Origin: Nanobdellota archaeon
GTDB lineage: Archaea; Nanobdellota; Nanobdellia; Woesearchaeales; GW2011-AR4
Direction: 5' to 3'
NCBI GenBank assembly: GCA_038046385.1
Contig: JBBSWH010000005.1
Coordinates: 468-32,467 of the forward strand
Length of the DNA: 32,000 bases
How positions within the stretch are numbered: position 1 is the stretch's first letter; the number at the start of each line of letters is the position of its first letter. A program made the translations under genes and the position numbers. Below, in pieces: positions 9,883-26,292 of this stretch. The notes beneath the pieces are model-generated. The model saw only the letters and a program-made list of their open reading frames with translations. It was not told the DNA's origin and did no database searches.

Positions 9883-9890
9883 GATTAAAA

Positions 9891-10403: not shown

Positions 10404-10823
10404 ATGAATATGAAAAACCTCAAGGAAAAAATCATTGGAGCAACTGGAAGCGTTTCAGGCGCCGCAAGCGTGCTTGGATCGTGGCAGATATGCCACAGCG
10501 TGTGCCTTGGAATAATTGCGCTTCTTGGCCTTATAGGAATAACAATAATCGGCATGCCGCTTGAGTTTCTCACAAGGATTGCTATTCCGATGTGGACAAT
10601 AGCAGTTTTGCTCCTTATAACTACATTTATCCTTTACAAAACCAAAAAATGCATTTCAAAAAATATGGTGATAATGAATACAGGAATAATAATTGCAGGA
10701 ACGCCATTTGCTCAAGTACAGCAATTCTCTATATTCTTTTGGTTTTTTGGGGGGCTGATAGCTGCTTATGGAATATTTTTAATGATAAAAGAAAGAAGAG
10801 AAATGAAATGTCATGAAAACTGA
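10404..10823 (+). CDS. 4-TM membrane protein with intramembrane Cx3C (ICHSVC); distant relative of the 4155 and 15726 products
   Basis: GSVSGAASVLGSWQICHSVCLGIIALLGLIGITIIGMPLEFL has the same layout: a Gly/Ser turn, a Cys pair, a TM helix, then P-x-E. Confidence 0.6.
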   Translation: MNMKNLKEKIIGATGSVSGAASVLGSWQICHSVCLGIIALLGLIGITIIGMPLEFLTRIAIPMWTIAVLLLITTFILYKTKKCISKNMVIMNTGIIIAGTPFAQVQQFSIFFWFFGGLIAAYGIFLMIKERREMKCHEN

Positions 10824-11259
10824 CTATTTAATTTATGGATTACTGATAGCGGTGATTGCAATTGCAGCATACACTTTTGCAGGAATGGTTGATAATCAGC
10901 CGGCAGCTGCACCCAACATCCAAAATAATGCCCAAGGATTCGGGTTGATATCCACCGGCGGCACGGATGATGGAAATGTTCAGGTTGATTTAACGCCAAA
11001 AGGGATTGTTAATGGGCAATTTCTTGTTGATTTTGCGATTAACACGCATTCTGTTGACTTAAGCCAGCTTGACCTGAAAAAAATAACAACGCTGGAATAC
11101 AGCGGGAAAAAAATCCAGCCATTGTCTGCCCCTGCATTAAGCGGGCATCACAACTCAGGCATAATTGCTTTTAACAGCGTTTCTGATTTAAAAAATTTCA
11201 AGATAACAATTGTTGGAATCCCCAACATTGAAGAAAGAGTTTTTGAGTGGAAATCCTAA
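10813..11259 (+). CDS. membrane-anchored exported protein with a GHH motif, unknown function
   Basis: 11-nt overlap with the previous gene. N-terminal TM anchor, then a beta-rich region: VDLTPKGIVNGQFLVDFAINTHSVDL...LSAPALSGHHNSGIIAF. Confidence 0.55.
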   Translation: MKTDYLIYGLLIAVIAIAAYTFAGMVDNQPAAAPNIQNNAQGFGLISTGGTDDGNVQVDLTPKGIVNGQFLVDFAINTHSVDLSQLDLKKITTLEYSGKKIQPLSAPALSGHHNSGIIAFNSVSDLKNFKITIVGIPNIEERVFEWKS

Positions 11260-11261
11260 AA

Positions 11262-12836
11262 ATGAGGAATATAAATTTAAATCATAAAATTGCAGTAATT
11301 ATGATAGTTTCTCTGCTCATAATATTGACCGCCTGCAGCCAGACTGATGATTCAATGCCTAATCATATGATGCCTATAAAAGAGATTTCTGAAGTGAAGC
11401 CGATTGGCAGAAGCGTTTCCGGGCTGGGAGAAGCAGAGCAATCAAGAATTGTTGAGTTAAAGGATAATCAAGCGTTTCAAATGGAAGCTAAGCCTATTGC
11501 CAAAGACATAAATGGCAATAAAATAATGATGTATGCTTACAATGGCCAGATGCCTGGCCCTTTGATAAAAGCAAAACAGGGCAGCTTAATTTATGTTAAT
11601 TTTACAAACAACATCGATATGGAAACAACAATCCATTGGCACGGAATAAGGTTAGATAACAAATTTGACGGTGTTGATGGGGCAAGCCAGAAGCCTGTGA
11701 AGCCAGGGGAAAGCTTTCTTTATGAAATCAGGCTTCCAGACGAAGGAATTTACTGGTATCATCCGCACATAAGGGAAGATTTGCAACAGGAACTTGGTTT
11801 GTATGGCAATATCTTAGTTGAGCCAAAAGACAAGGATTATTTCAATAAAGTGGATAATGAAATTGCTTTATTTTTGGATGACATAAAAATGAATGGCAAT
11901 GATATCGAGCCATTCAACAGCCAGTTTGCAACATTCACAATAATGGGCAGGTTTGGAAATGTGATGCTTGTGAATGGGGAAACGTACTATAGATTAAATG
12001 CAAATAAAGGAGAATCTGTAAGATTTTATTTGACTAATTCTGCAAACATAAGGACATTTAATTTTATGATTGGAGATCATAAGCTGAAGGTTGTAGGAAG
12101 CGATTCTGGCAAATATGAAAAAGAATCTATTGCCAACTCCATTATAATCTCTCCAGGTGAAAGATATACTGCAGAAGTTCTTTTTGACAAAGCAGGAATT
12201 TTCAAAATTATCCATAGAACTCCCAATAAAGACTACATTCTTGGAGAGGTTATTGTCAACGAAGCTTCTGGAAGTGTTAATGATGAATTTTATGAATTAA
12301 AGGAAAATGAAGAGATTAAGAGCTCAATAGCGCCCTTTAGAAGATATTTTTCTTCTGAGCCAGATTATATTTTCAATCTAGAAATAAATCAAGAATCTAT
12401 GGGGAAGATGGAAAGCAGAGCCAGCAATGAAGGCATAGAATGGGAAGACACGGGGCATGATGAAATGATGAATTCCATGTCGACAGCCAACAATGTAAGA
12501 TGGATGATTGTTGATGCTTTGACCGGCAAGGCAAATATGGACAATAATTACAAAGTTAAAGCTGGAGACATCAAAAAAATAAGATTTGTTAACGACAAAG
12601 ATTCCATGCACCCGATGCAACATCCAATGCATTTGCACGGGCAAAAGTTCCTTGTTTTAAGTGTTGACGGAGTTGAAAATGAAAATTTAGGATGGAAAGA
12701 CACTGTCCTTGTCCCTACGGGAAAAAATGTGGATATACTTATTGAGTTTTCAAACCCTGGAGAATGGATGCTCCACTGCCATATTGCAGAGCATCTTGAA
12801 GCCGGAATGGCAACAATGTTCACGGTCTCACAATAA
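11262..12836 (+). CDS. multicopper oxidase (laccase/CueO-like), lipoprotein
   Basis: All four MCO copper motifs are present: TIHWHGI, YWYHPHI, HPMHLHG and HCHIAEHLEAGM. Lipobox ILTAC. The track start at 11247 is a GTG inside the previous gene, and the first ATG is at 11262. Confidence 0.9.
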   Translation: MRNINLNHKIAVIMIVSLLIILTACSQTDDSMPNHMMPIKEISEVKPIGRSVSGLGEAEQSRIVELKDNQAFQMEAKPIAKDINGNKIMMYAYNGQMPGPLIKAKQGSLIYVNFTNNIDMETTIHWHGIRLDNKFDGVDGASQKPVKPGESFLYEIRLPDEGIYWYHPHIREDLQQELGLYGNILVEPKDKDYFNKVDNEIALFLDDIKMNGNDIEPFNSQFATFTIMGRFGNVMLVNGETYYRLNANKGESVRFYLTNSANIRTFNFMIGDHKLKVVGSDSGKYEKESIANSIIISPGERYTAEVLFDKAGIFKIIHRTPNKDYILGEVIVNEASGSVNDEFYELKENEEIKSSIAPFRRYFSSEPDYIFNLEINQESMGKMESRASNEGIEWEDTGHDEMMNSMSTANNVRWMIVDALTGKANMDNNYKVKAGDIKKIRFVNDKDSMHPMQHPMHLHGQKFLVLSVDGVENENLGWKDTVLVPTGKNVDILIEFSNPGEWMLHCHIAEHLEAGMATMFTVSQ

Positions 12837-12850
12837 TGGAGGTAATAAAA

Positions 12851-13051
12851 ATGAAACAAAATTTAGGTACAGTTGACAGAGTTTTGAGATTTGGATTGGC
12901 TTTTTGGTGGCTAGGGCCTTGGGCTCCGCAATACAGCGTTGAGTGGGTTAATTGGATAATTTTCCTTGTTGGCTGGATTGCGTTAATTGAAAGCTTTTTG
13001 GGATTTTGCTGGCTGCATAACATGTTTGGAATAAATAATATAAATCAATGA
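12851..13051 (+). CDS. DUF2892 (YgaP-like) small membrane protein
   Basis: GGAGGT (12838-12843) lies 7 nt before the ATG at 12851. MKQNLGTVDRVLRFGLAF...LIESFLGFCWLHNMFGIN fits the G-x-x-D-R-x-x-R ... G-x-C pattern. An alternative ATG at 12836 overlaps the MCO stop. Confidence 0.6.
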   Translation: MKQNLGTVDRVLRFGLAFWWLGPWAPQYSVEWVNWIIFLVGWIALIESFLGFCWLHNMFGINNINQ

Positions 13052-13122
13052 TAGAATTTTTGTAAGCTATGGAGATGAAGCATACCAACAACTAATAAAG
13101 CAAAGAACATCCATGACAGACT

Positions 13123-13713
13123 ATGCCAAAAATCACTAGAAAGTTGAATGCGGGCTATTTTTTGGCAGCAATTATCACATTGATATTGGCTTTTGTCATC
13201 TATGAATTTTCAAGCAATGGCAAACTTGAAGAAAAATCAACAACAGTTTATCAAAACCTGAATCAGGTGCAAGTTATCGGCACCAGAGTTGGCCAAGCCC
13301 CTTCGGATTTTGTTGCAATAACTACAGAAGGAAATCCAGTAAGGCTATATGATTTCATTGAGCAGAAAAAGCCAGTTATTGTATATTTTATGGCAACTTG
13401 GTGCCCATGGTGCGCAAAGGACTATGCCGCATTATCAAAAGTATACAAGAAATATGAAGATAATATAACTTTTATATCAATAAGCCTTGATTTGAGTGAA
13501 GATTTCCTTGAACTTAGGGAATATAAGAAAAAATACCCGGAACTGCAAAAAACAATATTTGCCCAGGGGCAGGAAAGAATACTTATTGATTATAGAATAA
13601 CAAAAACAACAACAAAATATGCAATAGGCAGTAATGGAACCATAGCATACTTCGCAATTGGCGCATTTGATGAAAAAGAATGGGAAATTTTGTTGAATAA
13701 ACTTAGCAGTTAG
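13123..13713 (+). CDS. membrane-anchored TlpA/ResA-like thiol-disulfide oxidoreductase
   Basis: TM anchor, then PVIVYFMATWCPWCAKDY (WCxxC) in a redoxin-fold context. Confidence 0.8.
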   Translation: MPKITRKLNAGYFLAAIITLILAFVIYEFSSNGKLEEKSTTVYQNLNQVQVIGTRVGQAPSDFVAITTEGNPVRLYDFIEQKKPVIVYFMATWCPWCAKDYAALSKVYKKYEDNITFISISLDLSEDFLELREYKKKYPELQKTIFAQGQERILIDYRITKTTTKYAIGSNGTIAYFAIGAFDEKEWEILLNKLSS

Positions 13714-13863
13714 GATAAAAATAACATTTGTATTCTTATGATTGTGTGCCTACTTGTGGAGCCCACTAAAGAAGCAAAGCTGATAATCTGCCACAATGCT
13801 TCACAACCCATTAAATCAGAAACTATGGCTGCACCTACAGTTTTCTTGGAACTAAGCAAAAGC

Positions 13864-13898
13864 TTTAAATATATGTTATTAATAACATATGTTATTAA
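13864..13898 (+). promoter_or_regulatory. TATA box plus a perfect 20-bp palindromic operator upstream of the ArsR-family gene
   Basis: TTTAAATA at 13864-13871. ATATGTTATTAATAACATAT at 13871-13890 is a perfect palindrome. ATATGTTATTAA recurs directly at 13887-13898. The ATG is at 13905. Confidence 0.6.
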
Positions 13899-13904
13899 AG
13901 CAAA

Positions 13905-14207
13905 ATGAAAACTCAATTAAGGCAGCCATACAGAACGTTTTTTGGGACGCTGGACAACCAGCACAGGATAGACATAATAGAGGCGCTCAGCAAAGAGGTA
14001 ATGAATGTTTCAAGCATTTGCAAAAAGACAGGATATGAGCAGTCCACAGTATCACACAGCCTCCAAAGGCTTGAGCACTGCGGATTTGTTTCTGTAAAGC
14101 AGAAAGGCAAGGAAAGAATATACACACTAAATAAGGATACTATCAAGCCGCTGATTAAGCTTATGAACAAGCACATTAAAAACCACTGCAGCAGGATATG
14201 CCATTAA
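13905..14207 (+). CDS. ArsR/SmtB-family metalloregulator
   Basis: RIDIIEALSKEVMNVSSICKKTGYEQSTVSHSLQRLEHCGFVSVKQKGKERIYTLN is a wHTH of ArsR type. C-terminal Cys/His cluster HIKNHCSRICH. Confidence 0.8.
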   Translation: MKTQLRQPYRTFFGTLDNQHRIDIIEALSKEVMNVSSICKKTGYEQSTVSHSLQRLEHCGFVSVKQKGKERIYTLNKDTIKPLIKLMNKHIKNHCSRICH

Positions 14208-14208
14208 A

Positions 14209-14415
14209 ATGACAAAATACAATATTTCAATACAGGGAATGCACTGCAAGAGCTGCAAAATGCTTGTAGATGACATTTTGTGCGATTCTGGCGCAAAATC
14301 AATAAAAATAGAAGTTGATGATAAGAAAAAAATTGGAAAAGCCTCCTTTGAATTTTCGGGGAATTTTAATGAGCTTAAAAAAGAAATAGAAAGCAACGGA
14401 TATAAGGTGAAGTAA
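14209..14415 (+). CDS. copZ: heavy-metal-associated (HMA) copper chaperone, CopZ-like
   Basis: 68 aa. ISIQGMHCKSCK contains the MxCxxC motif. Confidence 0.8.
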   Translation: MTKYNISIQGMHCKSCKMLVDDILCDSGAKSIKIEVDDKKKIGKASFEFSGNFNELKKEIESNGYKVK

Positions 14416-15341
14416 TGCACGTTAAAGTTTACTGCCCGGACATTGAATGCGATTCCTGCGCAAGGCTCCTTAAAAGGAGTTTTGAGAAAGCTGAAGGAAT
14501 TGTAAAATTTGAAATAAACAAAGAATCAATTGATTTTGAGTACAACCGTGGCGAATCAAGCGTCGAGATGATTCTTAAAATAATACGCAGCAAGGGATTC
14601 AGGGCTTCGCTTGAGCCGTTTATAAGAAAAAATTTTAAGGAGCGCTTGAGGGACTTCAGGGAAAACAAAAGCAAGTATGAGCTGGAATACAGAATGCTGA
14701 ATTATTTGTTGTTTAACCTGTTTTGCCTGCTTGTTTTTAATGCAGCAGTATATCTTATTTTTTTAAAAAATGTGCCTGATTTTCTCCAGAGATACGGCTG
14801 GTGGGCATTTTATACTATGATTTCAATAGCAAGCATAGGCACTGCAATGTGGCACTTCAGGTCATACAAAGGCGAAGTGACTTCAATGACCGGGATGATG
14901 ATCGGGATGACATTCGGCATGCAGACCGGGCTTATGATTGGGACGATAATAGGGGCAACAAACGGAATTTTTATAGGAAGCATGGCCGGGATGCTATCAG
15001 CAGTCATTGTCGGGATTTACAACGGCAAATGCTGCGGAATTATGGGTATTCTTGAAGGAGTTATGGCAGGGCTGATGGGCGGGACAATGGGAGGCATGAT
15101 AGGGGTCATGATGTTCGCAGACCATATACTCTGGTTCATGCCGTTTTTCTTTTTGATAAATATTGCAGTAATGCTTGGCCTTTCTTACATGCTGTTTGAA
15201 GAATTTGTCGAAGACAATGAAAAAACCAAAAAAGATGAAGTCAAGCTGTGGAAGCTGATTGCAGCCAGCATAATAGTAATGGCTGTTTTTCTGGTGATTA
15301 TGGTTTATGCCCCAAAGTCCGGGCTGGCAAGAGTGATTTAA
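14415..15341 (+). CDS. fusion of an atypical HMA-like domain to a Gly/Met-rich polytopic membrane domain (unknown family)
   Basis: TAATG overlap with copZ. The N-terminus VKVYCPDIECDSCARLLKRSFEKAEGI is ferredoxin-like HMA. The C-terminus reads MTGMMIGMTFGMQTGLMIGTIIGATNGIFIGSMAGM...NGKCCGIMGILEGVMAGLMGGTMGGMIGVMMF. Confidence 0.65.
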   Translation: MHVKVYCPDIECDSCARLLKRSFEKAEGIVKFEINKESIDFEYNRGESSVEMILKIIRSKGFRASLEPFIRKNFKERLRDFRENKSKYELEYRMLNYLLFNLFCLLVFNAAVYLIFLKNVPDFLQRYGWWAFYTMISIASIGTAMWHFRSYKGEVTSMTGMMIGMTFGMQTGLMIGTIIGATNGIFIGSMAGMLSAVIVGIYNGKCCGIMGILEGVMAGLMGGTMGGMIGVMMFADHILWFMPFFFLINIAVMLGLSYMLFEEFVEDNEKTKKDEVKLWKLIAASIIVMAVFLVIMVYAPKSGLARVI

Positions 15342-15713
15342 ATGAAAAAAACAGCCTTATTGTTTTTCCTTGCCATATTTATCACGGCATGCTCTTCCAA
15401 TGCGCCAATCTCTCCCCAGTCTTCTAATTCAGAAGCAAAAATTGTAGACGGAATGCAGGCCATAACACTAAGCTGGGGGAAATTCAATTATGAGCCTGCA
15501 ACGATGAAATTCAAGCTGGGAGTTCCTGCAAGAATCTACGGAGACCTTACAAGACTGCAGGGCTGCTTCAGATCTTTTGAGATTCCTGAACTAGGAGTTT
15601 CTACGGTTTTTTCCCAAAGAAAAAATTATGTTGATTTTATGCCTGATCAAGAAGGAAGATTCACGTTTGCATGCTCCATGGGAATGGGCAGCGGCACAAT
15701 AATAGTCGAATAA
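15342..15713 (+). CDS. cupredoxin-like lipoprotein
   Basis: Lipobox FITAC. ATMKFKLGVPARIYGD...FEIPELGV...DQEGRFTFACSMGMGSGTIIVE resembles the small cupredoxin_1-type domains found beside copA genes. Confidence 0.5.
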   Translation: MKKTALLFFLAIFITACSSNAPISPQSSNSEAKIVDGMQAITLSWGKFNYEPATMKFKLGVPARIYGDLTRLQGCFRSFEIPELGVSTVFSQRKNYVDFMPDQEGRFTFACSMGMGSGTIIVE

Positions 15714-15725
15714 TAGCTGAATAAA

Positions 15726-16172
15726 ATGAAAATAATCTTCAAAAAGCCTTATTTATACTGGACATTCGGAATATTTTTTGGATATTTCTTATTGAATGCC
15801 TACCTAAGCGATTTTTTTTATGACATGAAGTTTATCGGGTACTACCTGGAGACTATAAACTGGGGCAAATTTGTTATTAGCGTATCTTTGTCTGTTTTAA
15901 TTGCTGCTCTTGTGGCGGCAAATGCAGTATACCTTTACATAAGGTATAAAGAGCATAAAAATCTCAAAGTTGAGGGAACCCTGGCCTGTGCAGGAACTTT
16001 TGGTGGATTGGCAACCGGGGTCTGTTCAATATGCGCTGCAGGAATCCTTCCATTTATGCTTGATTTAATGGGAATCTCATTCACTTTTGGAACGCTTCCA
16101 TTGAAAGGAATTGAAATCCAGATTTTGACTGCTGCATTATTATTTGCCGGCTTGTGGGGGATAAAAAAATGA
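15726..16172 (+). CDS. 4-TM membrane protein with intramembrane CxxC (VCSICA); paralog of 4155-4709
   Basis: LACAGTFGGLATGVCSICAAGILPFMLDLMGISFTFGTLPLKGIE. ATGA overlap with the copA ATG at 16169. Confidence 0.7.
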   Translation: MKIIFKKPYLYWTFGIFFGYFLLNAYLSDFFYDMKFIGYYLETINWGKFVISVSLSVLIAALVAANAVYLYIRYKEHKNLKVEGTLACAGTFGGLATGVCSICAAGILPFMLDLMGISFTFGTLPLKGIEIQILTAALLFAGLWGIKK

Positions 16173-18358
16173 AAAAAGAAGTAACTTTCTCTATAAGGGG
16201 GATGCACTGCGCCAGCTGCTCAAACATAATCACAAGGGCACTAACCAAAACTGAAGGAGTTGAGAGTGCAGTTGTAAATTATTCTACGGAAAAGGCAAAT
16301 GTGACTTTTGACGGAAATATTTTAGAAGAAGATTTGATAAAAATAATAGAGAAAAAAGGCTACAAAGCCTCAGTAGCAAAAGATTTGCAGCAGGAAAAGA
16401 AAAAGAAACTTGAAGAGATTCTGTCATTAAAGAAAAGTTTTCTCATAAGCCTTGTTTTGTCATTGCCGGCTTTTCTGATTGGAATGATATTTATGGAAGA
16501 CGGCATGCTTTATTTTGGAATTATGGTGCCTTATGCAGTTATAATACTTTTTTTGCTTTCCACACCGGTGCAATTTTGGATTGGATGGAGATTCTACAAA
16601 GGAACCTTTGCAGCGCTTAAGAACAAAAACGCAAACATGGACAGCCTCATTGCAATAGGAACAAGCGCGGCTTATTTCTACAGCGTTTATTCAGTTTTCG
16701 TTTTGAAAAGCGACGTCCAGTATTTTGAAGTGAGCGCGGTCCTTATAACATTTGTAATGATGGGCAAGTGGCTGGAAGCAAGAGCCAAAGGCAAGATGTC
16801 GGAAGCAATTGAAAAGCTAATTTCACTATCGCCGAAAACTGCAATTGTTGTAAAAAAAGGAAAAGAAGTGAAAGTGAGCGTCGATGAGTTAGCTGCAGGA
16901 GATATCATAATAGTAAAGCCAGGAGAAAAAATACCGGTTGACGGAATAATAACAGAAGGCAATTCATCAATTGACGAAAGCATGGTCACAGGGGAAAGCA
17001 TACCGATTGACAAGGCAAAAGGGAGTTTAGTAATTGGAGGGACCCTTAACAAACACGGGTCATTCAGGTTCAAGGCAACCAAAGTGGGGGCTGACACTAC
17101 ATTATCGCATATAATCAAATTGATAGAGGATGCACAAGCCAAAAAAGCCCCAATACAGAGGTTTGCTGACAATGTTTCGTCTTATTTTGTCCCTATTGTT
17201 ATTGTTATTTCTATTGTGACTTTTGCAGTCTGGTATTACCTATTGTCTTCTACATTTACATTTGCACTTATCAATGCAGTGTCTGTTCTTGTGATAGCCT
17301 GCCCATGCGCTTTGGGACTGGCGACGCCGACTGCAATACTTGTCGGAACCGGCCTTGGAGCAAAACAAGGCATTCTGATAAAAGGAGGGGATTCTCTGGA
17401 AAATGCGCACAAAGTCAGGCACGTGATTTTTGACAAAACAGGCACTATCACAAAAGGCAAGCCGGAAGTGACTGACATAATATCCTTAAAATCCGGCGAG
17501 AAGGAGATAATACAGATTGCAGCAAGCATGGAAAAAAATTCCGAGCATTCGCTTGCAGAATCAATCCTTAATAAGGCAAAATTGATGAACCTTAAGCTGG
17601 ATAGTCCGTCTGGTTTTTTAGCAATTTCAGGCAAAGGCATAACCGCTTCAGTCAAAAACAAAAAGTATTATCTTGGGAACAGCAAGCTGGTCAAAAAAAG
17701 CCTGTCAAATGAAATTAAAAATAAGATAAATTCTTTGCAGGATCAGGGAAAAACTGTGGTGATGCTTGCTTCTGATAAGAATGTGCTTGGAATCATTGCA
17801 ATTGCAGACACAATAAAAGATTCAGCAGTTGAGACGATAAAACAGCTGCATTCAATGAAAATAGAGACGTATATGATAACCGGAGACAATGAAAGGGCGG
17901 CAAAGGCGATAGCCAAACAAGTCGGAATCAAAAATGTATTTGCAGAGGTAATGCCAAAGGACAAAAGTGATTATGTGAAAAAACTCCAGAAAAAGGGGAA
18001 AGTTGCAATGGTGGGGGACGGGATTAATGACGCTCCTGCGCTGGCACAGGCAGATATCGGGATTGCAATGGGTTCCGGAACAGATGTTGCGATTGAAACT
18101 GGAAACATTGTTCTGATGAGAAACGATTTGATGGATGTGCCTGCTGCATTCAGGTTAAGCAGGATTACAATGTCAAAAATAAAGCAGAACATGTTCTGGG
18201 CGATGTTTTACAATGTGATGGGGATTCCGATTGCAGCAGGAGTTTTATATCCGCTTACCGGAATGCTTTTATCCCCCATGCTTGCAGGAGGGGCAATGGC
18301 ATTAAGCTCAGTCAGCGTTGTGACAAACTCATTATTATTAAAAAATAAGAGATTGTAG
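16169..18358 (+). CDS. copA: copper-translocating P1B-type ATPase
   Basis: HMA motif GMHCASCS, transmembrane CPCALGLATP, phosphorylation site DKTGTIT, MITGDN and GDGINDAPAL. The track start at 16154 lies inside the previous gene, and the ATG at 16169 forms an ATGA overlap. Confidence 0.93.
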   Translation: MKKEVTFSIRGMHCASCSNIITRALTKTEGVESAVVNYSTEKANVTFDGNILEEDLIKIIEKKGYKASVAKDLQQEKKKKLEEILSLKKSFLISLVLSLPAFLIGMIFMEDGMLYFGIMVPYAVIILFLLSTPVQFWIGWRFYKGTFAALKNKNANMDSLIAIGTSAAYFYSVYSVFVLKSDVQYFEVSAVLITFVMMGKWLEARAKGKMSEAIEKLISLSPKTAIVVKKGKEVKVSVDELAAGDIIIVKPGEKIPVDGIITEGNSSIDESMVTGESIPIDKAKGSLVIGGTLNKHGSFRFKATKVGADTTLSHIIKLIEDAQAKKAPIQRFADNVSSYFVPIVIVISIVTFAVWYYLLSSTFTFALINAVSVLVIACPCALGLATPTAILVGTGLGAKQGILIKGGDSLENAHKVRHVIFDKTGTITKGKPEVTDIISLKSGEKEIIQIAASMEKNSEHSLAESILNKAKLMNLKLDSPSGFLAISGKGITASVKNKKYYLGNSKLVKKSLSNEIKNKINSLQDQGKTVVMLASDKNVLGIIAIADTIKDSAVETIKQLHSMKIETYMITGDNERAAKAIAKQVGIKNVFAEVMPKDKSDYVKKLQKKGKVAMVGDGINDAPALAQADIGIAMGSGTDVAIETGNIVLMRNDLMDVPAAFRLSRITMSKIKQNMFWAMFYNVMGIPIAAGVLYPLTGMLLSPMLAGGAMALSSVSVVTNSLLLKNKRL

Positions 18359-18367
18359 GTGATTTAA

Positions 18368-18748
18368 ATGTATCAGATAAAAAAAGAAACAAAATTGAGT
18401 TTTGAAGCTGCGGTTGCAAAAACAAGGGAAGAGCTGCAGAAAGAAGGGTTTGGAGTGCTGACAGAGATTGATGTCAAAGCTACTCTTAAGAAGAAGTTAG
18501 ATGTGGATTTTGATGATTATACAATATTAGGCGCATGCAATCCTCCGATGGCTTACAAGGCGCTTCAGGCAGAGCAGGATTTGGGACTGATGCTCCCGTG
18601 CAACGTGATAGTTTATTCCAAAAACGGCAAGACAGTTGTTGCTGCAATAAAGCCGACTGTCCAGATGGAAAAACTTGGAAATCCAAAGCTGAAGGAAGTT
18701 GCTGTGATGGTGGAAGAAAAGCTGAAAAAGGTTGTTGAGGGAGTTTGA
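18368..18748 (+). CDS. DUF302-domain protein
   Basis: AGGTGAT precedes the ATG. FEAAVAKTREELQKEGFGVLTEIDVKATLKKKL...YTILGACNPPMAYKAL is the typical DUF302 pattern. Confidence 0.75.
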   Translation: MYQIKKETKLSFEAAVAKTREELQKEGFGVLTEIDVKATLKKKLDVDFDDYTILGACNPPMAYKALQAEQDLGLMLPCNVIVYSKNGKTVVAAIKPTVQMEKLGNPKLKEVAVMVEEKLKKVVEGV

Positions 18749-18785: not shown

Positions 18786-19772
18786 CTAATCTGAATTTAT
18801 TTTTAATATTTCTTGATAAGCAGGCATCCAGCTTTCATGAATCATTATAAGATGTTCGTAATTTCTGATAACATGAGGGAATGCTTTCCTTAATTCATTT
18901 ATTATTTTGTTGAAATGTTGGTAATTCTCAACTGCAAATTCAAACTCTACTTCCCAAGGAGCAAGGCTTCTGATGTAATAAAGAGAGTTTGGATGCTGGC
19001 TCATCCATTCAAAAAGGGACTTTTCGTCTTTGTCTGACAATTTTCTGAAATAGATTATTGCCTTGAAGAACTCCAAGCCTAATTTGTTGAAATCGACTGC
19101 TATTCTGTAATTTAAGATTATTCCTTTTTCTTCTAATTTCCTTATCCTTCCCCTTACGATTTCTATTGTGGATTCGGTTTTTCTTGACAATTCTGTCAGT
19201 GGGATTCTTGCTTCATTTGCCAGTATAAGGAGAATTTTTGAATCCAATTCATCAATTTTGTTATCTACGACATCGCCTCCAAATGTTACACAATCTGCAT
19301 TTTTTTCATTTGTGAAAAATTTTTTATTATATTGTCTTGTGTCTACCATTGTGCCAAGCACTTTGCTTACAATGAGATGTTCCCATTTTGAAAGCAGAGT
19401 GTTTATTTTTTCAAAATATTCCGGGATGCTTTTTGATAGGAACGCAAATACCACATCAAAAACTCCGTCAGAAATGCCATACCAGTAAATGTCCTTGTTT
19501 TGCTTCAGCTCTTCAAAGAATTTTTCCCTTTCATTCGGTATGTTTTCCAGTTTTAAATAAACTTTAAACATGTAATAGCCTAGCTTATTTGGGTTGATTG
19601 AAGTTATAAAACCTTGAAGCACACCATCCTTTTGCAATTGCTGGATTCTGTATTTTACTGCTTCCCTTGACTTGTGAACTTTCTTTGCAAGCTGGGCATT
19701 TGAGATTCTGCAATTCTTGTCAAGTTCTGCAATTATTTTTCTATCGGTTGTATCTAGTTGAATTTTACTCAT
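18786..19772 (-). CDS. tandem (double) Lrp/AsnC-family transcriptional regulator
   Basis: Two HTH units: LDTTDRKIIAELDKNCRISNAQLAKKVHKSREAVKYRIQQLQKDGVL and LDSKILLILANEARIPLTELSRKTESTIEIVRGRIRKLEEKGII. Each is followed by an effector-like domain. Confidence 0.8.
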   Translation of the reverse strand: MSKIQLDTTDRKIIAELDKNCRISNAQLAKKVHKSREAVKYRIQQLQKDGVLQGFITSINPNKLGYYMFKVYLKLENIPNEREKFFEELKQNKDIYWYGISDGVFDVVFAFLSKSIPEYFEKINTLLSKWEHLIVSKVLGTMVDTRQYNKKFFTNEKNADCVTFGGDVVDNKIDELDSKILLILANEARIPLTELSRKTESTIEIVRGRIRKLEEKGIILNYRIAVDFNKLGLEFFKAIIYFRKLSDKDEKSLFEWMSQHPNSLYYIRSLAPWEVEFEFAVENYQHFNKIINELRKAFPHVIRNYEHLIMIHESWMPAYQEILKINSD

Positions 19773-19882
19773 ATATTAACCGATATGTGTTTTTATTTAT
19801 AAATATTTCTATAAAATGGTTAAAAAATAGTACAAAGTTTAATATCTATGTTTAATCTGTTATTATTTATTGGTGGTAACAA

Positions 19883-20134
19883 ATGGCAGGAAACAGAACG
19901 AATGATGGAATAAGAATCTCGGACATAATCAGATTGCTAAGCCAATTGCCTGGAATCAATATCAGACAAGGCAGCAATCATCCTTACATTGCAATAAGAG
20001 ATGGAATGAGGCCGTGTCCAATTGCAGCTTCTACCAATGCAAAAACTATGCTGGTGCCTTGGATAGCACAAGCTACTGGCTACAACAGGCAGTCAATCTA
20101 TTCTTCTTTAAGATCCGGGGAGTGGTACGGATGA
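19883..20134 (+). CDS. HicA/YcfA-like small protein (dsRBD-like fold)
   Basis: 83 aa. ISDIIRLLSQLPGINIRQGSNHPYIAIRDGMRPCPIAASTNAKTMLVPWIAQATG matches the HicA core layout: helix, G-x-x-x-x-x-GSxH, beta-hairpin, C-terminal helix. Confidence 0.5.
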   Translation: MAGNRTNDGIRISDIIRLLSQLPGINIRQGSNHPYIAIRDGMRPCPIAASTNAKTMLVPWIAQATGYNRQSIYSSLRSGEWYG

Positions 20135-21525
20135 CAAAAATAGATTTAATCCAACCAAGGCACAATTATGCACCTCCTGCTAGTCAGGAAGCTATTGGGC
20201 ATGTGTACATGCCAACTTCACTGTTAACAGCAGCTGCAAGATTAATTGCCGCAGGAGTGGATGTAGAAATACATGATGAAAACATAAGGCCACGCAATAT
20301 AACTTCTGAATATATAGGAATTAATCTTCTTGGAGCGCCTTACATTCCTGAAGCTATAAGGATTCAGAATGAAATAAGCAGGGAAGCAGAAAATGCAAAA
20401 TATATTCTTGGCGGGCAGGTAATATCCGGGCTTTCTCCAGAGGAATTAAGAAGGCTTTTTGGAAATTCTGCACATAACGGAAATGATGACACAACCTTGG
20501 CGTCTGTGCTTGGAGTAGACACCAGAAGCTTAACTTCTGCAAGAAACACTTCTTTGATTCCGGCATATGAAAGAATCTCGGATAAAGATATGAAGATGTA
20601 CCTATCAAGAGAATTTGGATTTTATCTTTCCCAGGGTTGTGAGAAAGCGTGTGATTTTTGCGCTGCATCCAGAACATTTAAAGATCCGGTTACTGGGGAT
20701 ATTTCCAGAGTGATTGAGTCTTATAGGAGCCCTGAAATTATAAGAGCAGATTTGGAATATCTTGTAGGAAGGGCAAGAAGAATGGGGATGAATGAATTAA
20801 ATATGTACCTCTCTAATTTGGATGTATTCCAAACTCCTGGTGCATTGGCAGAATTTGCAAATATAGTTCAAGATATCAGAAGAGAAAATCCTGGCTTTGA
20901 AATAGTGACAAGAGGGCTTTCAAGAGTAGATTCGTTCCTAAATGCTAGAAAAAATGCAATTAGTCCAATTGAAGAGATAGTTTCATCTGGCTTTCATACT
21001 GTCGGGTTTGGTGTAGATGGGGGGACAGAAGAGGCATGGAGAAACAACCATAAGGGACAGAATGAAAGGATGTGCATCGAAGCAATAAGATCTGCAAGGC
21101 AGGATTATGGGATAACACCTGAGGCATTGATGGTATTTGGACATGTAAACACAAGCGAAAATGACCCTCGCGCAGCGTATGACTTTGCAAAGTCGATGTC
21201 AGAGAGTTATGGAGCAATCCCAAGGCCGCATATTTCAAAGTGGAGAATTCCAGGAAATGCAGGCTGGAGGGAAGAAAGTGGCAGAAATTATAGAGAAGCA
21301 TTAATTTCAAATCCAGTTCTTTTCCAGTCATTAGACTTTACAGCGCTTCCTTCAAGGCTTACGCATCCAGATTCTGCACTAAGAGAGGAAGCAATAAAGT
21401 ATTTTCTTATGATGTGCCTGCTTCCAGACAATACGACGCAGCCGGTGTTTCCTTTAGAGCCAGGAATGGGGCCGCATGAAATTGAACGTGTTAGGCTGCG
21501 CAATATTGGAAAATATGACAGATAA
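20131..21525 (+). CDS. radical SAM enzyme with an N-terminal B12-binding-like (class B type) domain
   Basis: ATGA overlap with the HicA-like stop. N-terminus IDLIQPRHNY...YMPTSLLTAAARLIAAGVDVEIHDEN. CX3CX2C cluster motif YLSQGCEKACDFCAAS. The track start at 20014 is an in-frame extension inside the previous gene. Confidence 0.8.
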   Translation: MTKIDLIQPRHNYAPPASQEAIGHVYMPTSLLTAAARLIAAGVDVEIHDENIRPRNITSEYIGINLLGAPYIPEAIRIQNEISREAENAKYILGGQVISGLSPEELRRLFGNSAHNGNDDTTLASVLGVDTRSLTSARNTSLIPAYERISDKDMKMYLSREFGFYLSQGCEKACDFCAASRTFKDPVTGDISRVIESYRSPEIIRADLEYLVGRARRMGMNELNMYLSNLDVFQTPGALAEFANIVQDIRRENPGFEIVTRGLSRVDSFLNARKNAISPIEEIVSSGFHTVGFGVDGGTEEAWRNNHKGQNERMCIEAIRSARQDYGITPEALMVFGHVNTSENDPRAAYDFAKSMSESYGAIPRPHISKWRIPGNAGWREESGRNYREALISNPVLFQSLDFTALPSRLTHPDSALREEAIKYFLMMCLLPDNTTQPVFPLEPGMGPHEIERVRLRNIGKYDR

Positions 21526-21612: not shown

Positions 21613-22773
21613 ATGAAAAAGTCAATTTTTGTTTTGTTTATTATTTCTGTGTTTTTGCTTGCAGCATGCTCGCAAACTGAGCAGGCGCAGCAGCCGGCGC
21701 AGGATACGCAGGGCTCATATAAAATAGGGGTCATGGCTCCTTTGACAGGGGACGCAGCTTCTGTTGGCCTGCCAATCCAGAAGGCATTAAAGATTGCTTT
21801 TGATGAGGTAAATGCAAAAGGCGGAGTCAACGGAAAAAAGCTTGAGCCTATTTACGAGGACAGCAAGTGCAATCCAAAGGATGGAAACGCAGCAGCCCAG
21901 AAGCTTATCAGCGTTGATAATGTTAAAGTCATAATAGGAGGAGTATGCTCTGGAGAGACTCTTGGAGCAGCGCCGATAACAGAAGCCAATAAAGTTTTGC
22001 TTATATCTCCAAGCGCAACTTCACCGGATATAACCAAAGCAGGAGATTTTGTTTTCAGGACTGCTCCGAGCGATGCTTATGCCGGAGCGGTTGCATCTGA
22101 TTATGCATTCAATGAATTAAATTCAAGGAAAGCAGCCATAATATCAGAAAACACTGACTATGCACAGGGCTTGAAAAGAGTATTTGCAGAAAACTTTGTC
22201 AAGCTTGGCGGAGAAATTGTTGCTGATGAAACATACAATCCGGAAGACGCTGATTTCAGGACACAGGTTACAAAAGTCAAGGCAGCCGGACCTAATGTGA
22301 TATACATTGTTCCTCAGACTCCTCCAAAGGGAATTTTGCTTATTAAGCAGATTAGGGAAGCAGGAGTTACTGCACAGCTTGTAACAGCTGAAGTTTTGAT
22401 AGGAAGGAATGTTGTCAAGGAAAACTGGGCAGACATGGAAGGCCTTATAGGAATTGAACAGAAGTTTGATGAGAAAGGAACAAAGGCAGCTGCACTGCTT
22501 GCAAAGTACAGGCAGCAGACAAATGAAGAAGCCCCATTCCCCGGATACATGGCCGGCGCTTATGACATTGTATACCTGATTGCAGACGCAATTGCAAAGA
22601 ACGGCTACGACAGCGAAGCATTGAAAAATTATTTCTATGCTATTGAGGATTATAACGGTGCTGCCGGAAAGATTACAATGGACCAGAACGGAGATCCGAT
22701 AATGGAGTACTCTGTGCAGCAGGTAAAGAACGGCGTTGTAGTTCCGGCACAGGCAACTCCGAGCAAGGGATAA
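21613..22773 (+). CDS. ABC transporter substrate-binding lipoprotein, branched-chain amino acid (LivJ/K) family
   Basis: Lipobox LLAAC. YKIGVMAPLTGDAASVGLPIQKALKIAFDEVNAKGGVNGKKLE...DSKCNPKDGNAAAQKLI is the classic type I periplasmic-binding-protein (Leu/Ile/Val) N-terminus. Confidence 0.85.
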   Translation: MKKSIFVLFIISVFLLAACSQTEQAQQPAQDTQGSYKIGVMAPLTGDAASVGLPIQKALKIAFDEVNAKGGVNGKKLEPIYEDSKCNPKDGNAAAQKLISVDNVKVIIGGVCSGETLGAAPITEANKVLLISPSATSPDITKAGDFVFRTAPSDAYAGAVASDYAFNELNSRKAAIISENTDYAQGLKRVFAENFVKLGGEIVADETYNPEDADFRTQVTKVKAAGPNVIYIVPQTPPKGILLIKQIREAGVTAQLVTAEVLIGRNVVKENWADMEGLIGIEQKFDEKGTKAAALLAKYRQQTNEEAPFPGYMAGAYDIVYLIADAIAKNGYDSEALKNYFYAIEDYNGAAGKITMDQNGDPIMEYSVQQVKNGVVVPAQATPSKG

Positions 22774-23008: not shown

Positions 23009-23893
23009 ATGCCATTCACGGACATACTGCCGCAGCTGCTGGTCAATGGGCTGATTGCCGGGGCAATTTATGCGCTTGCGGCTTCTGGATTCTCGCTTGT
23101 TTATTATGTTCTCAAGTTCCAGTATTTCTCGCAGGGCGCGATAATGACAATAGGCGCTTACTCTTTTTTTGCATTTTTCACTTCCATGAAAATTGGCTAT
23201 GTTACTGCAGGCATTCTTTCAGTAATTGTATCAATTCTTGCGGCTTTGATAACAAACTGGATTGTTTACAGGCCATTGAGAAGGAGAAAAGCGACTCCGG
23301 TGACATTGCTTATAACATCTATTGTTTTGCTTATGTTCTCTTCTTCATTGATTCTTGCGCTTTTTGGGTCGAGTGCAAAGACAATACCTTTTTCAAACAA
23401 AACTTATGATTTTGGGATGTTTACGATAACTTTGCTGCAGATATGGATTATTGCTTCATCAATTGTTTTGTTCTTTGCGCTTTGGCTTGTTCTTAAATTC
23501 ACAAGGCTCGGGAAGGCAATGCGCGCAATAGCAGACAACAAGGATGTTGCGCAGATTATAGGAATAAATCCTGAAAAAATCTACACTTTCACGTTTGTTA
23601 TTGCCTCTGTTTTAGGGGCTTTTGCAGGAATTCTGCTGGGGCTCGAGCAGAACCTGTATCCGAGGATGGGGGTGCTGGTTATAGTAAAAGGATTCATCGG
23701 CGCTGTTGTCGGCGGAATAACATCTGTGCCGGGCTCAATAATCGGCGGGCTGACAGTAGGGGTTGTTGAAAACATAGGGATATGGTTTTTGCCTTCAGGC
23801 TACAAGGATGTTATATCATTTACCATACTCCTTGTGTTTCTTTTGCTTAGGCCGCAGGGAATTTTTGGAGTGAGGTTGCGGGATGATTCTTGA
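23009..23893 (+). CDS. livH: branched-chain amino acid ABC transporter permease (LivH-type)
   Basis: LPQLLVNGLIAGAIYALAASGFSLVY at the N-terminus and AMRAIADNKDVAQIIGINP are typical of LivH. Confidence 0.85.
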   Translation: MPFTDILPQLLVNGLIAGAIYALAASGFSLVYYVLKFQYFSQGAIMTIGAYSFFAFFTSMKIGYVTAGILSVIVSILAALITNWIVYRPLRRRKATPVTLLITSIVLLMFSSSLILALFGSSAKTIPFSNKTYDFGMFTITLLQIWIIASSIVLFFALWLVLKFTRLGKAMRAIADNKDVAQIIGINPEKIYTFTFVIASVLGAFAGILLGLEQNLYPRMGVLVIVKGFIGAVVGGITSVPGSIIGGLTVGVVENIGIWFLPSGYKDVISFTILLVFLLLRPQGIFGVRLRDDS

Positions 23894-24734
23894 TTATTTT
23901 GTTTCAATTATTACATATTCTTTGATTTACATACTGATAGTCACATCATTAAATCTTGCCTATGGATTTACAGGGCTTGTGAATCTTGGGCATATGGCTT
24001 TCTTCGGCATCGGAGCGTATGCTTCTGCATTATTGACTTTAAATGGGATGCCTTGGTATGCTGCAATGATTTTAGCAGGAATAATTGCGTCAGTTTTTGG
24101 GGCAATAATGGCTGCAATAACTGTTCGTTTGAAGGGAGATTATTTTCAGGTGGTTACTTTGGGGCTCGTGTTTATGACGATTGCAGTATCAAGAAATTGG
24201 ATATCGCTGACAAGGGGCGCTTTGGGACTGCCCGGGGTGCCAAGCATAATATCAAGCAAATTTTATTACATGCTTTTTGTTTTATTAATCTGCAGTATTT
24301 GTGTTCTTATAATTAATCTTATTGTGAAGTCAAAAACCGGAAGAATTTTTCAGGCAATAAGGGATGATGAGACTGCGGCAGCTATTCTTGGGAAGAACAC
24401 TTATTTTTACAAGGTTTTAAGCATTTCAGTATCAACATTCTTTGCAGGAATTGCGGGAAGCTTGTTTGTTCATTATATTAATTTTGTAGATCCCACTATA
24501 TTTGACCTTGAGTTTTTCGTGCTAATACTTTCCTTCCTCATTATTGGGGGAGTTGCGTCTATAAAAGGAACTATAATCAGCGTTTTTGTGTTGGAAGCAA
24601 TACATGAGTCACTGAGATTTGTTGCAATAAGCCCGGAAATAATTGGCGCTTTGAGGGTTATGCTTTTTATGGGGATATCGATTGTCATACTGATATTCAG
24701 ACCGAGGGGAATGTTTGGCAAGGTGGACATATGA
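23883..24734 (+). CDS. livM: branched-chain amino acid ABC transporter permease (LivM-type)
   Basis: LNLAYGFTGLVNLGHMAFFGIGAYASA and FQAIRDDETAAAILGKN are typical of LivM. 11-nt overlap with livH. Confidence 0.85.
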   Translation: MILDYFVSIITYSLIYILIVTSLNLAYGFTGLVNLGHMAFFGIGAYASALLTLNGMPWYAAMILAGIIASVFGAIMAAITVRLKGDYFQVVTLGLVFMTIAVSRNWISLTRGALGLPGVPSIISSKFYYMLFVLLICSICVLIINLIVKSKTGRIFQAIRDDETAAAILGKNTYFYKVLSISVSTFFAGIAGSLFVHYINFVDPTIFDLEFFVLILSFLIIGGVASIKGTIISVFVLEAIHESLRFVAISPEIIGALRVMLFMGISIVILIFRPRGMFGKVDI

Positions 24735-25417
24735 TGCTTTCATTAAAGAATATTTCAAAAAGCTTTGGGGGTGTTAAGGCTGTTGATAGATGTACATTTA
24801 ATGTTGAAGAAGGAACTATCACATCGCTTATCGGGCCGAACGGCGCAGGCAAGACCACTGTGTTTAACATAATAAGCGGATTAACGAATCCGGATTCCGG
24901 ATCAATAAAGCTTGGAAACAGGGATGTTGCAGGGCTTCCTGCTTACAAAATCGCACAATTCGGGATAAGCAGGACTTTTCAATTGACTAAAGTGTTCAGG
25001 AATATGTCAATAAAAGACAACCTGCTTATGGCAAAAGAAGCATCTGAAAAAGAGATGGAAGATGTTATTAAAAGTGTTTACCTTAACAAGCCGCTCGATA
25101 CAACTGCTTCTGAGCTTTCTTACGGCCAGCAAAGACTGCTGGAGATTGCAAGGGCATTATTGATGCCGCATAACCTTTTGATGCTTGATGAGCCTACTGC
25201 AGGAGTTAATCCAAGGATAAGGCAGGAATTAAAGATAATACTTAAGAAATTAAGAAAAGAAGGGAAAACTGTTTTGCTTATTGAGCACGACATGGATTTT
25301 GTGATGGATATAAGCGACAAAGTGATTGTCCTTGCAGAAGGCAGTGTTTTAAGAGAAGGAAAGCCAAATGAGATAATGAAAGACAAAAAGGTTTTAGAGG
25401 TTTATCTGGGGAAATAA
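24731..25417 (+). CDS. livG: ABC transporter ATP-binding protein (LivG-type)
   Basis: Walker A GPNGAGKTT, signature LSYGQQRLLEIA, Walker B LLMLDEPTAG. ATGA-type overlap with livM. Confidence 0.85.
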   Translation: MMLSLKNISKSFGGVKAVDRCTFNVEEGTITSLIGPNGAGKTTVFNIISGLTNPDSGSIKLGNRDVAGLPAYKIAQFGISRTFQLTKVFRNMSIKDNLLMAKEASEKEMEDVIKSVYLNKPLDTTASELSYGQQRLLEIARALLMPHNLLMLDEPTAGVNPRIRQELKIILKKLRKEGKTVLLIEHDMDFVMDISDKVIVLAEGSVLREGKPNEIMKDKKVLEVYLGK

Positions 25418-25584: not shown

Positions 25585-26292
25585 ATGTTAAACATACAAA
25601 ACCTAAAATCAGGATATGGGAAGATGCAAGTACTTGATGGAGTGAATCTTGCTGTAAAACCGGGAGAGATAGCTGTGCTGATTGGGCCAAATGGCGCAGG
25701 GAAATCAACTGTGCTAAAAAGCATCTTTAATTTGATTGATATTTACAATGGAAAAATTGTTTATAAAAATAAGGACATCACAGATATTCCAACTCATGAG
25801 CTTATCGAGCTTGGAATAAGCTATGTTCCGCAGGGGAGGCAGGTTTTCAGCAGCCTGACTGTGAAAGAAAATCTTGAAATGGGTGCTTTTCTTACAAAGG
25901 AAAAAACGCTTGTAGATAAAAAAATGGAAGAAGTGCTGGAAAAGCATTTTCCAGACTTAAGGAAAAAACTTAATGATTATGCATTCTCCCTTTCCGGAGG
26001 GCAGCAGCAGATGCTTGCAATCGGAAGGGCGCTTATGCAAGATCCGCAGCTGCTTTTATTGGATGAGCCTTCGCTTGGGCTGGCCCCAAAGATAATGAAA
26101 GAGTTATTCAGAAAGATAAAGGAAATCAATGAAGAAGGAGTTACAATACTGATGGTTGAGCAGAACGCAAGACAGGCTACTCAGATTGCAGACAAAATAT
26201 TCGTGCTTGAGGACGGAAAAGTGGCTTTGAGCGGCAATAAATCGTTGTTGAAAACAAAAAAGATACAGCATATTTATCTTGGCGGGCATTGA
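25585..26292 (+). CDS. livF: ABC transporter ATP-binding protein (LivF-type)
   Basis: Walker A GPNGAGKST, signature LSGGQQQMLAIG, Walker B LLLLDEPSLG. Confidence 0.85.
   Translation: MLNIQNLKSGYGKMQVLDGVNLAVKPGEIAVLIGPNGAGKSTVLKSIFNLIDIYNGKIVYKNKDITDIPTHELIELGISYVPQGRQVFSSLTVKENLEMGAFLTKEKTLVDKKMEEVLEKHFPDLRKKLNDYAFSLSGGQQQMLAIGRALMQDPQLLLLDEPSLGLAPKIMKELFRKIKEINEEGVTILMVEQNARQATQIADKIFVLEDGKVALSGNKSLLKTKKIQHIYLGGH

Follow-up and report, generated by a model that had tools for sequence, protein, structure and literature searches.

In hicAB modules, the gene for the toxin HicA comes first and is followed by the gene for the antitoxin HicB. Among radical S-adenosylmethionine (SAM) enzymes, AprD4 is a 1,2-diol dehydratase which acts on an aminoglycoside in apramycin biosynthesis, and OxsB binds cobalamin. 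Genes that recall both kinds of system adjoin each other in the stretch of DNA analysed here (hereafter the window), which comprises 32,000 nucleotides from a Nanobdellota archaeon (GenBank assembly GCA_038046385.1, contig JBBSWH010000005.1, positions 468 to 32,467 of the forward strand). An open reading frame (ORF) of 83 aa (19883-20134, + strand; ATG start, TGA stop), here called the small gene, ends in a TGA that, within an ATGA, overlaps the start codon of a 464-aa gene for a radical SAM enzyme (20131-21525, +). The initial annotation, made from the letters alone, described a HicA-like gene coupled to a B12-domain-type radical SAM enzyme in the place of HicB, and offered three readings: a toxin/immunity or defence pair, an RNA-modifying enzyme with a specificity subunit resembling a double-stranded RNA-binding domain (dsRBD), or a pair for a ribosomally synthesised and post-translationally modified peptide (RiPP). 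The ORF list and the raw sequence agree with the two reading frames and their overlap. The pairing is real as an observation and ordinary as a genomic arrangement, and it points to two uncharacterised families. The reading favoured here, at slightly better than an even chance, is a facultative juxtaposition, in which the small gene would be an optional leader cistron in an Lrp-controlled operon for an enzyme and an importer, and the small protein would act on nucleic acid independently.

This reading is carried mainly by the distribution of the two families. A scan of one genome per species gave 73 loci with the radical SAM family, hosted by DPANN archaea, many phyla of the candidate phyla radiation (CPR), Bacteroidota, and a few Proteobacteria, Acidobacteria and Spirochaetes. 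The small gene is present at one of the 73 (L003, a Woesearchaeota metagenome-assembled genome, MAG), a result on which the narrow and the broad hidden Markov model (HMM) of the family agree. Seen from the small gene, metagenome scans and look-ups of exact proteins yielded about 16 distinct types of context, and in about 14 of them no radical SAM gene of any kind is present. Over the about 90 related loci compared in all, the two genes are occasional neighbours. The small family and the radical SAM family are distributed independently. This disfavours a toxin/immunity pair as well as an RNA-targeting subunit and a RiPP-type pair: none of the three readings first proposed fits the distribution. 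The idea that the enzyme stands in place of HicB fares no better, as 72 of the 73 enzyme loci lack the small gene, and what lies 3' of the latter elsewhere is one of about 16 other kinds of neighbour or no partner at all. A RiPP precursor with its maturase was considered separately and rejected, both because the enzyme dispenses with the small gene at those 72 loci and because the small protein is conserved over its full length and predicted to be folded.

The pair does recur beyond this contig (in L003, L094 and L092), but with one genome locus in 73 it is not a conserved unit. The order of tandem Lrp gene, small gene and radical SAM gene of the window family is found in the window, L003 and L092, while in L094 the small gene precedes the same radical SAM family on a contig that ends before any upstream gene. 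The ATGA overlap is present in the window, L003 and L094, and a spacer of 65 nt separates the two genes in L092; within this spacer (~531-595), a very short acidic ORF encodes MNDDEDFDELH. Metagenome contigs from Hainich groundwater carry the small gene in identical copies with the same neighbours. A different arrangement is found in L076-78, where a tandem Lrp gene (84% identical) is followed by the small gene, by a different, class-B radical SAM gene joined to it through an ATGA overlap, and by a class-V aminotransferase gene. In L076 (3875-8174) the small protein is 66% identical, and the window-type radical SAM and liv genes have been replaced. The class-B enzyme of these loci has 522 aa, scores 31.7 bits for the B12-binding domain and finds its best NCBIfam models among the ApyD and PhpK types; only the radical SAM core is common to it and the window enzyme (hhalign 95%, 198 columns).

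Elsewhere the small gene keeps other company. In L097/98 it lies between a distant tandem Lrp gene (34% identical) and the gene of a 298-aa protein of no known kind, and in L089-91 between a TrmB-like regulator and a binding lipoprotein of the NMT1 type; the small protein encoded in the latter loci is the closest homologue, with 84% identity. In L081 and L085 it stands beside an SMR/EamA-like membrane protein of 105-122 aa (3296-3613 and 2341-2709, respectively), whose copies are 53% identical on unrelated contigs and whose gene adjoins the small gene once upstream and once downstream. It is followed by uncharacterised proteins or a methyltransferase-like protein in L074, L079, L080, L082-84, L095 and L096, and it stands alone between convergent or divergent neighbours in L099 and L101. 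Further neighbours are ordinary chromosomal genes, namely those for Maf, BtpA, CTP synthase and RNase J, and pgk. The small gene is usually the first after a divergent promoter, with a gene for a DNA-binding regulator on the other side in most contexts. Two paralogues are present on a single 9.4-kb contig (L084; 1546-1896, -, and 5001-5234, +), and more than one copy per genome is thus possible.

The placement of the small gene within the operon can be read from the promoter region. The divergent intergenic region of the window (19773-19882, 18% GC) would function as a shared promoter/operator and holds the 5' leader of the + strand operon, with a Shine-Dalgarno-like GGTGG motif 6-10 nt 5' of the ATG of the small gene. 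Across 13 aligned loci its Lrp-proximal 75-105 nt stay conserved, regardless of which comes first on the + strand, the small gene or the radical SAM gene; about 75 nt of the region are nearly invariant, TTTATAAATATTTCTATAAAACGGTTAAAA included. The window leader 5' of the small gene resembles the L001 leader 5' of the radical SAM gene. Since the leader is shared with or without the small gene, the latter fills a slot between the promoter/leader and the start of the enzyme. In two archaeal loci, L017 (2585-3080) and L018 (1076-1617), the same slot directly 5' of the radical SAM gene is occupied by a gene for a ParE/RelE toxin, and the position therefore tolerates small extra genes. A further small ORF lies 5' of the ParE/RelE gene, belonging to DUF2683 in L018 and having no Pfam match in L017.

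What does accompany the radical SAM family constantly is a regulator and a transporter. The regulator of the window, encoded at 18786-19772 (- strand) in divergent orientation to the small and radical SAM genes, is, as the initial annotation had it, of the tandem Lrp/AsnC type. It has 328 aa with two helix-turn-helix (HTH) and two effector-domain halves, and its two HTH_AsnC-type stretches match Pfam at E 2e-22. The NCBIfam models LrpA, AsnC and Lrp also match, all below their equivalog cut-offs. A siroheme decarboxylase identity (AhbA/B, NirDL) was tried and rejected, since the matches cover the HTH alone and reach 22 bits where the cut-offs are 125-140. On the strand of the radical SAM gene, and 3' of it, a complete ABC importer of the Liv type is encoded. 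It comprises a LivK-type binding protein (Peripla_BP_6; 21613-22773) with a lipoprotein-like N-terminus, which matches Pfam at 7.3e-63 and an NCBIfam subfamily of branched-chain amino acid substrate-binding proteins at 163 bits, two permeases (23009-23893 and 23883-24734, both BPD_transp_2 in Pfam) and two ATPases (24731-25417 and 25585-26292, both ABC_tran in Pfam).

Clustering of the neighbours of the radical SAM family across genomes returned a TrmB-like regulator at 24 loci (in CPR), the tandem Lrp protein at 20 (in DPANN), LivK-type proteins at 12 and ABC ATPases at nine; the counts for the tandem Lrp and for the Liv-type binding proteins or their distant relatives include the window. The divergent pair of tandem Lrp and radical SAM genes was found at 19 fetched genome loci in addition to the window, all but two of the 20 being labelled as DPANN-type archaeal MAGs, and the loci named for it are the window, L001-L016, L019, L022, L025 and L060. 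Identity of the tandem Lrp protein to the window copy is 69-88% in 15 fetched loci and 40-45% in four. Conservation is higher for the regulator than for the enzyme: in the 15 closest loci, identity to the window copies is 69-88% for the former and 52-60% for the latter. The Liv genes follow the radical SAM gene in L003 in the same order as in the window, and in L057 the radical SAM gene is embedded inside a liv operon.

In CPR bacteria the radical SAM gene is divergent from that of the TrmB-like regulator, of ~260-285 aa, at 24 loci, among them L024, L027, L032, L034, L036, L037, L042, L047, L050, L053, L063 and L067 (about 3000-3900, -). Full-length relatives of this regulator (20-27% identity) flank the small gene in L084, L085 and L096, and of the TrmB-like protein beside the small gene in L089 a short N-terminal stretch is available, with 28-37% identity. 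In Bacteroidota, Proteobacteria and Acidobacteria, the gene of a membrane-anchored protein of ~400 aa ends 0-40 nt 5' of the radical SAM gene (L021, L033, L038, L049 from Kordia aestuariivivens, L055, L057 and L061). This protein is a distant relative of LivK/Peripla_BP_6 (E 1.6e-10 to the window LivK) that has no Pfam match itself, and at four of these loci a multi-pass, permease-like membrane protein of ~325 aa is encoded directly 3' of the radical SAM gene.

The radical SAM enzyme itself carries the CEKACDFC motif noted at the outset (C170-x3-C174-x2-C177). These three are the only cysteines invariant in 24 homologues with 46-61% identity to the window enzyme, which argues for a single cluster. 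The best-named relatives come from Woesearchaeota, Nanoarchaeota and Micrarchaeota. Family assignments from sequence are marginal: the Pfam model Radical_SAM (PF04055) is matched with 29.9 bits, barely over the cut-off of 29.5, the B12-binding model (PF02310) with 13 bits against a cut-off of 32.1, and NCBIfam makes no class-B assignment, its best model reaching E 8.5e-4 and 18 bits against a cut-off of 251 bits. Neither a curated family nor a sequence relative in the PDB was found. The AlphaFold model (pLDDT 90.7) has an N-terminal Rossmann-like (B12-binding-like) domain followed by a radical SAM barrel, and Foldseek gives it a probability of 1.00 against many radical SAM structures. The best match is AprD4 (6FD2; E 5e-13, TM 0.62-0.64), followed by OxsB and then by MiaB, RimO and MtaB. 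AprD4 does not bind cobalamin despite its Rossmann-related domain (2026 review, PMC12931638). With a low PF02310 score, a best match that is cobalamin-free and a second-best match that binds cobalamin, the label 'B12-domain-type' given by the initial annotation is right for the predicted architecture, with its Rossmann-like domain, and tentative for the cofactor.

The substrate of the enzyme is probably an imported or sensed small molecule, and RNA or protein is less likely, since ligand-sensing regulators, solute-binding proteins and permeases constantly accompany the enzyme. The conserved neighbours together with AprD4 as the closest structure thus indicate small-molecule metabolism in place of the three readings first proposed. 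An identity as one of the radical SAM enzymes of tetraether lipids (Tes/GDGT-MAS, Gms) was also considered and rejected, as there was no PDB sequence match and no lipid radical SAM enzyme among the Foldseek matches listed.

The small ORF is a real gene and not a product of chance, given pairwise dN/dS values of 0.13-0.37 between the window copy and those in seven other loci and a family of 66 clusters. This family emerged from an exhaustive HMM search of 1.84 billion representatives at E <= 1e-3, a word-indexed search having returned five close homologues. Members have ~75-120 aa, barring a few long proteins matched over short repeated stretches and some truncated fragments, and come so far from metagenomes and, among the fetched genome loci, from one Woesearchaeota MAG. 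The protein is basic (pI 10.2). In an alignment of 60 sequences, T6, D8, G9, G30 and H33 are at least 90% conserved, and K5, R28, C45, S50, T51, P59, W60, Y67, Y73 and G79 are strongly conserved, which gives the signature K-T-x-D-G ... G-x-x-H ... C-P ... S-T ... P-W. The fold is predicted with good confidence (AlphaFold pLDDT 87), with helices at 12-21, 53-65 and 69-78 and strands at 25-29, 35-39 and 45-47. The predicted topology is an alpha-beta-beta-beta-alpha core with an extra C-terminal helix, and the Gly-x-x-His lies in the turn between beta1 and beta2. Searches of IMG/VR (two scans) and of PLSDB plasmids found no relatives, and phages gave just one match, at E = 0.2. An origin from a mobile element was rejected, with no IMG/VR or plasmid relatives and no anomaly in GC content, which agrees with that of the neighbouring genes. 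Searched with the family profile, the PDB sequences returned only spurious matches (a designed repeat protein and methylglyoxal synthase) and no HicA chain.

Whether the small protein belongs to HicA was the central claim of the initial annotation. Residues 30-33 read GSNH and so do residues 20-23 of E. coli HicA (PDB 6HPB), in agreement with the initial annotation. However, Gly30 is found in 54 and His33 in 56 of the 60 family members, whereas the two middle residues vary; with only Gly30 and His33 conserved, the shared tetrapeptide is weak evidence alone. The small protein has no match at E <= 1 to the HicA models of Pfam, NCBIfam and PADLOC, and one of the 60 family members reaches E 0.057 with the Pfam model HicA_toxin. 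For comparison, the HicA family profile PF07927 gives 30.9 bits (E 3e-7) with the E. coli HicA sequence. Membership by HMM was accordingly rejected, neither the window protein (in Pfam, NCBIfam and PADLOC) nor the 60 members (in Pfam) being assigned to HicA.

Profile comparison is at first sight more favourable, as hhalign relates the small family to the E. coli HicA clade with 62.6% (E 7e-5, 39 columns, in register), Gly30 and His33 aligning with the invariant Gly20 and His23 of that clade. Because true HicA clades barely detect one another by HMMER, a broader profile was built as a control from nine canonical HicAs, three of them PDB chains and six encoded by hicA genes on plasmids; next to four of these six genes a hicB is annotated. 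Against this nine-sequence profile the small family reaches 10.3%, and 15.9% against a combined profile, while the E. coli HicA clade, compared with the canonical profile as the control, reaches 95.3% (E 2.5e-8) over its full length. The claim of homology was downgraded for this reason. In Foldseek, HicA 6G26_F ranks 11th at E 4.1, with TM 0.54 (target) and 0.42 (query), and is the match with the highest target-normalised TM among the rows that cover most of the model. The small protein thus shows a predicted HicA-like topology and a Gly-x-x-His turn; the resemblance is weak and family membership is not demonstrated. No HicB family was detected in the downstream neighbours scanned or among the 34 ORFs of the window scanned with Pfam, as the initial annotation had observed. 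The position of HicB 3' of the small gene is held by the radical SAM gene here and by more than ten unrelated genes or by none elsewhere, and the adjacent HicB of a hicAB module is clearly wanting. Nor is there the conserved unit of two small genes expected of a type II toxin-antitoxin module, as there is no constant partner over the ~16 contexts and the gene is alone in L099 and L101.

Under the favoured reading, the core unit would be a tandem Lrp/AsnC regulator which divergently controls an operon for an AprD4-like radical SAM enzyme, with a predicted single [4Fe-4S] cluster and Rossmann-like N-terminal domain, and for a Liv-type ABC importer. The enzyme would most likely convert a small molecule that is imported and belongs to the amino-acid or amine/sugar class. 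A few Woesearchaeota-like lineages would have acquired the 83-aa gene between the conserved promoter/leader and the start codon of the enzyme, where it would be the cistron translated first, with its translation coupled through the ATGA overlap to that of the radical SAM gene. The small protein may bind, and possibly cleave, RNA or another nucleic acid independently of the enzyme, and its expression would be gated by whichever regulator adjoins it, be it the tandem Lrp, a TrmB-like or an AbrB-like protein. Several points weigh against this account. The ATGA overlap precedes two different B12-type radical SAM families, which exceeds the naive expectation for random neighbours, although a link of radical SAM genes to the Lrp regulator may account for it. 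The regulators that recur next to the small gene and next to the radical SAM gene come from the same two families, tandem Lrp and TrmB-like, and these two genes could belong to one regulon. Foldseek found no significant relative of the small-protein model, with every match at E >= 1.2 in the PDB and >= 0.6 in BFVD. Most contexts of the small gene are short metagenome contigs on which remoter partners would escape notice.

Other functions for the small protein have to be set against these data. It is unlikely to be a divergent HicA-type endoribonuclease toxin which lacks HicB, is curbed by the adjacent regulator or an unrecognised antitoxin, and has the radical SAM gene beside it incidentally. 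The predicted alpha-beta-beta-beta-alpha core, the basic charge, the at least 90% conserved Gly30 and His33 in register with Gly20 and His23 of the E. coli clade (62.6%), and 6G26_F as the match with the top target-normalised TM (0.54) among rows covering most of the model are all consistent with such a toxin, as are the usual position of the gene, like hicA, at the head of its transcription unit and the bona fide ParE/RelE toxin in the same slot in L017 and L018. However, no HicA match arises in Pfam, NCBIfam or PADLOC, the broader profile gives 10-16% where a true HicA control gives 95%, the small family does not conserve the P-R-H or 'vP.H' motif found in HicAs, and the Foldseek E-value for HicA is 4.1. 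In addition, neither a HicB-like nor any other recurrent downstream gene was found, the lone small gene in L099 and L101 is hard to square with a lethal toxin, and the gene was not found on plasmids, phages or viral contigs. Less likely again is a DNA-binding co-regulator without relation to HicA, in which helices 53-65 and 69-78 ('TGY..x.IY..L+.G') would form an HTH-like hairpin acting with or downstream of Lrp/TrmB on the same promoter. A transcription-factor gene does adjoin the small gene in most contexts, the pI of 10.2 and the want of a significant HicA signal fit, and Pfam gives sub-threshold HTH matches (RsmI_C HTH in four members and dnstrm_HI1420 in two, against HicA_toxin in one), the dnstrm_HI1420 match spanning residues 51-79 of the window protein, its last two helices. 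These matches lie far under threshold (best E 0.05), the top conserved residues (T6, D8, G9, G30, H33 and C45) fall in the N-terminal beta part and not in the putative recognition helix, and Foldseek returned no match to HTH proteins.

Two further proposals give the radical SAM enzyme a share in the function. It is improbable, more so than the co-regulator, that the small family is a new family of RNA-acting DPANN proteins with a HicA-like fold which is gated by tandem Lrp, TrmB or AbrB instead of an antitoxin and which cooperates in Lrp operons with B12-type radical SAM enzymes, either coupling induction to RNA turnover or serving as an accessory subunit. If the small protein were such a regulator-gated RNase or accessory subunit, it would represent a new control principle in ultra-small archaea. 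The least probable of the proposals makes the small protein a partner of the B12-type radical SAM enzymes in Lrp operons, as in the initial annotation: it would be a subunit with a substrate-recruiting, chaperoning or regulatory role, or a protein modified by the enzyme, with the ATGA overlap ensuring stoichiometric co-synthesis. For this speak the overlaps in the window, L003 and L094 and with the unrelated class-B enzyme in L076-78, the fact that the two radical SAM proteins so linked share merely the radical SAM core, and the association of both genes with the same regulator families. Yet 72 of the 73 genome loci with the radical SAM family lack the small gene, about 14 of the 16 types of small-gene context lack a radical SAM gene of any kind, and 65 nt separate the two in L092. 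In contrast to a RiPP precursor, the small protein is conserved throughout and has a predicted fold, and the conserved neighbours of the enzyme are transporters and regulators. Moreover, the Lrp gene marks the L076 locus as orthologous, and replacement within an Lrp regulon can account for the second radical SAM gene there.

The remainder of the window holds genes for copper/redox homeostasis, lipoproteins, PEP carboxylase and DNA repair. A defence setting had been considered in the initial annotation; no defence genes were seen among the neighbours in the window, which are copper/redox, transport and central-metabolism genes, and PADLOC matched neither the small protein nor the radical SAM protein. 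In six-frame searches of the window neither a second paralogue of the small gene nor a canonical HicA turned up, an Rfam scan of it matched no family, and scans of it for sigma-70 promoters and terminators did no better than on shuffled sequence, as expected for an archaeon. The copper/redox cluster (4576-18748) encodes a DsbA/thioredoxin-like protein, two peroxiredoxin-like proteins, a multicopper oxidase (11247-12836), an ArsR-type regulator (13905-14207), a cupredoxin-like protein (15342-15713), a heavy-metal P-type ATPase (16154-18358) and a DUF302 protein (18368-18748), together with several ORFs of 139-308 aa that match no family. Two paralogues of the prolipoprotein diacylglyceryl transferase Lgt, 29% identical, are also present (3367-4158 and 8908-9672) in what is apparently an archaeal genome, each directly 3' of an ORF of 262-286 aa with no Pfam match (2577-3365 and 8051-8911). 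Several proteins encoded near the Lgt genes, the LivK-type protein included, have lipoprotein-like N-termini.

Should the favoured reading hold, the practical gain would lie in annotation. The small family, ~66 clusters that have no Pfam model, stands habitually beside transcription-factor genes. The radical SAM family is widespread and uncharacterised, and its links to Lrp/TrmB regulators and Liv-type proteins make it tractable for substrate discovery in organisms of minimal metabolism. The locus also carries a caution, in that neither an ATGA overlap nor a tetrapeptide shared with a toxin suffices to define a toxin-antitoxin-like module.

Set beside the described systems, the small protein is closest to HicA (PF07927; 6HPB, 6G26 from B. 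pseudomallei and 1WHZ, TTHA1913 from T. thermophilus). Like these it is small and basic, with a predicted alpha1-beta1-beta2-beta3-alpha2 order and a Gly-x-x-His turn between beta1 and beta2 in which GSNH is identical to E. coli HicA, and its gene is the first of a transcription unit and at times overlaps the next. It differs in being ~25 residues longer, in its conserved N-terminal K-T-x-D-G and its predicted extra C-terminal helix, in lacking the P-(R)-H motif and HicB or any constant partner, and in not having been found on plasmids or phages. HMM, profile-profile (broad profile) and Foldseek comparisons with HicA all fell short of significance.

For the enzyme, AprD4 (6FD2) is a structural match over the full length, with a Rossmann-like N-terminal domain before the barrel, one CxxxCxxC motif and a similar size (453 vs 464 aa). 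However, sequence identity is only 13-14%, neither aminoglycoside genes nor an AprD3-like reductase were seen near the window enzyme, and its family is found in DPANN archaea, CPR bacteria and Bacteroidota, not in the antibiotic clusters of actinomycetes. Class-B radical SAM enzymes (OxsB, 5UL4, and methylases of the PhpK and HpnR types) have the same order of domains, OxsB being the second-best structural match and the replacement enzyme of L076-78 a typical member, whereas the window enzyme remains at 13 bits for PF02310 (cut-off 32.1) and has no class-B assignment in NCBIfam. Finally, the locus as a whole resembles the classical Lrp-liv arrangement, with a regulator of the Lrp/AsnC type divergent from an operon of LivK, LivH, LivM, LivG and LivF homologues. 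It departs from that arrangement in that two Lrp units are fused in tandem in the regulator and in that the operon opens with a radical SAM enzyme, preceded here by an extra small gene.

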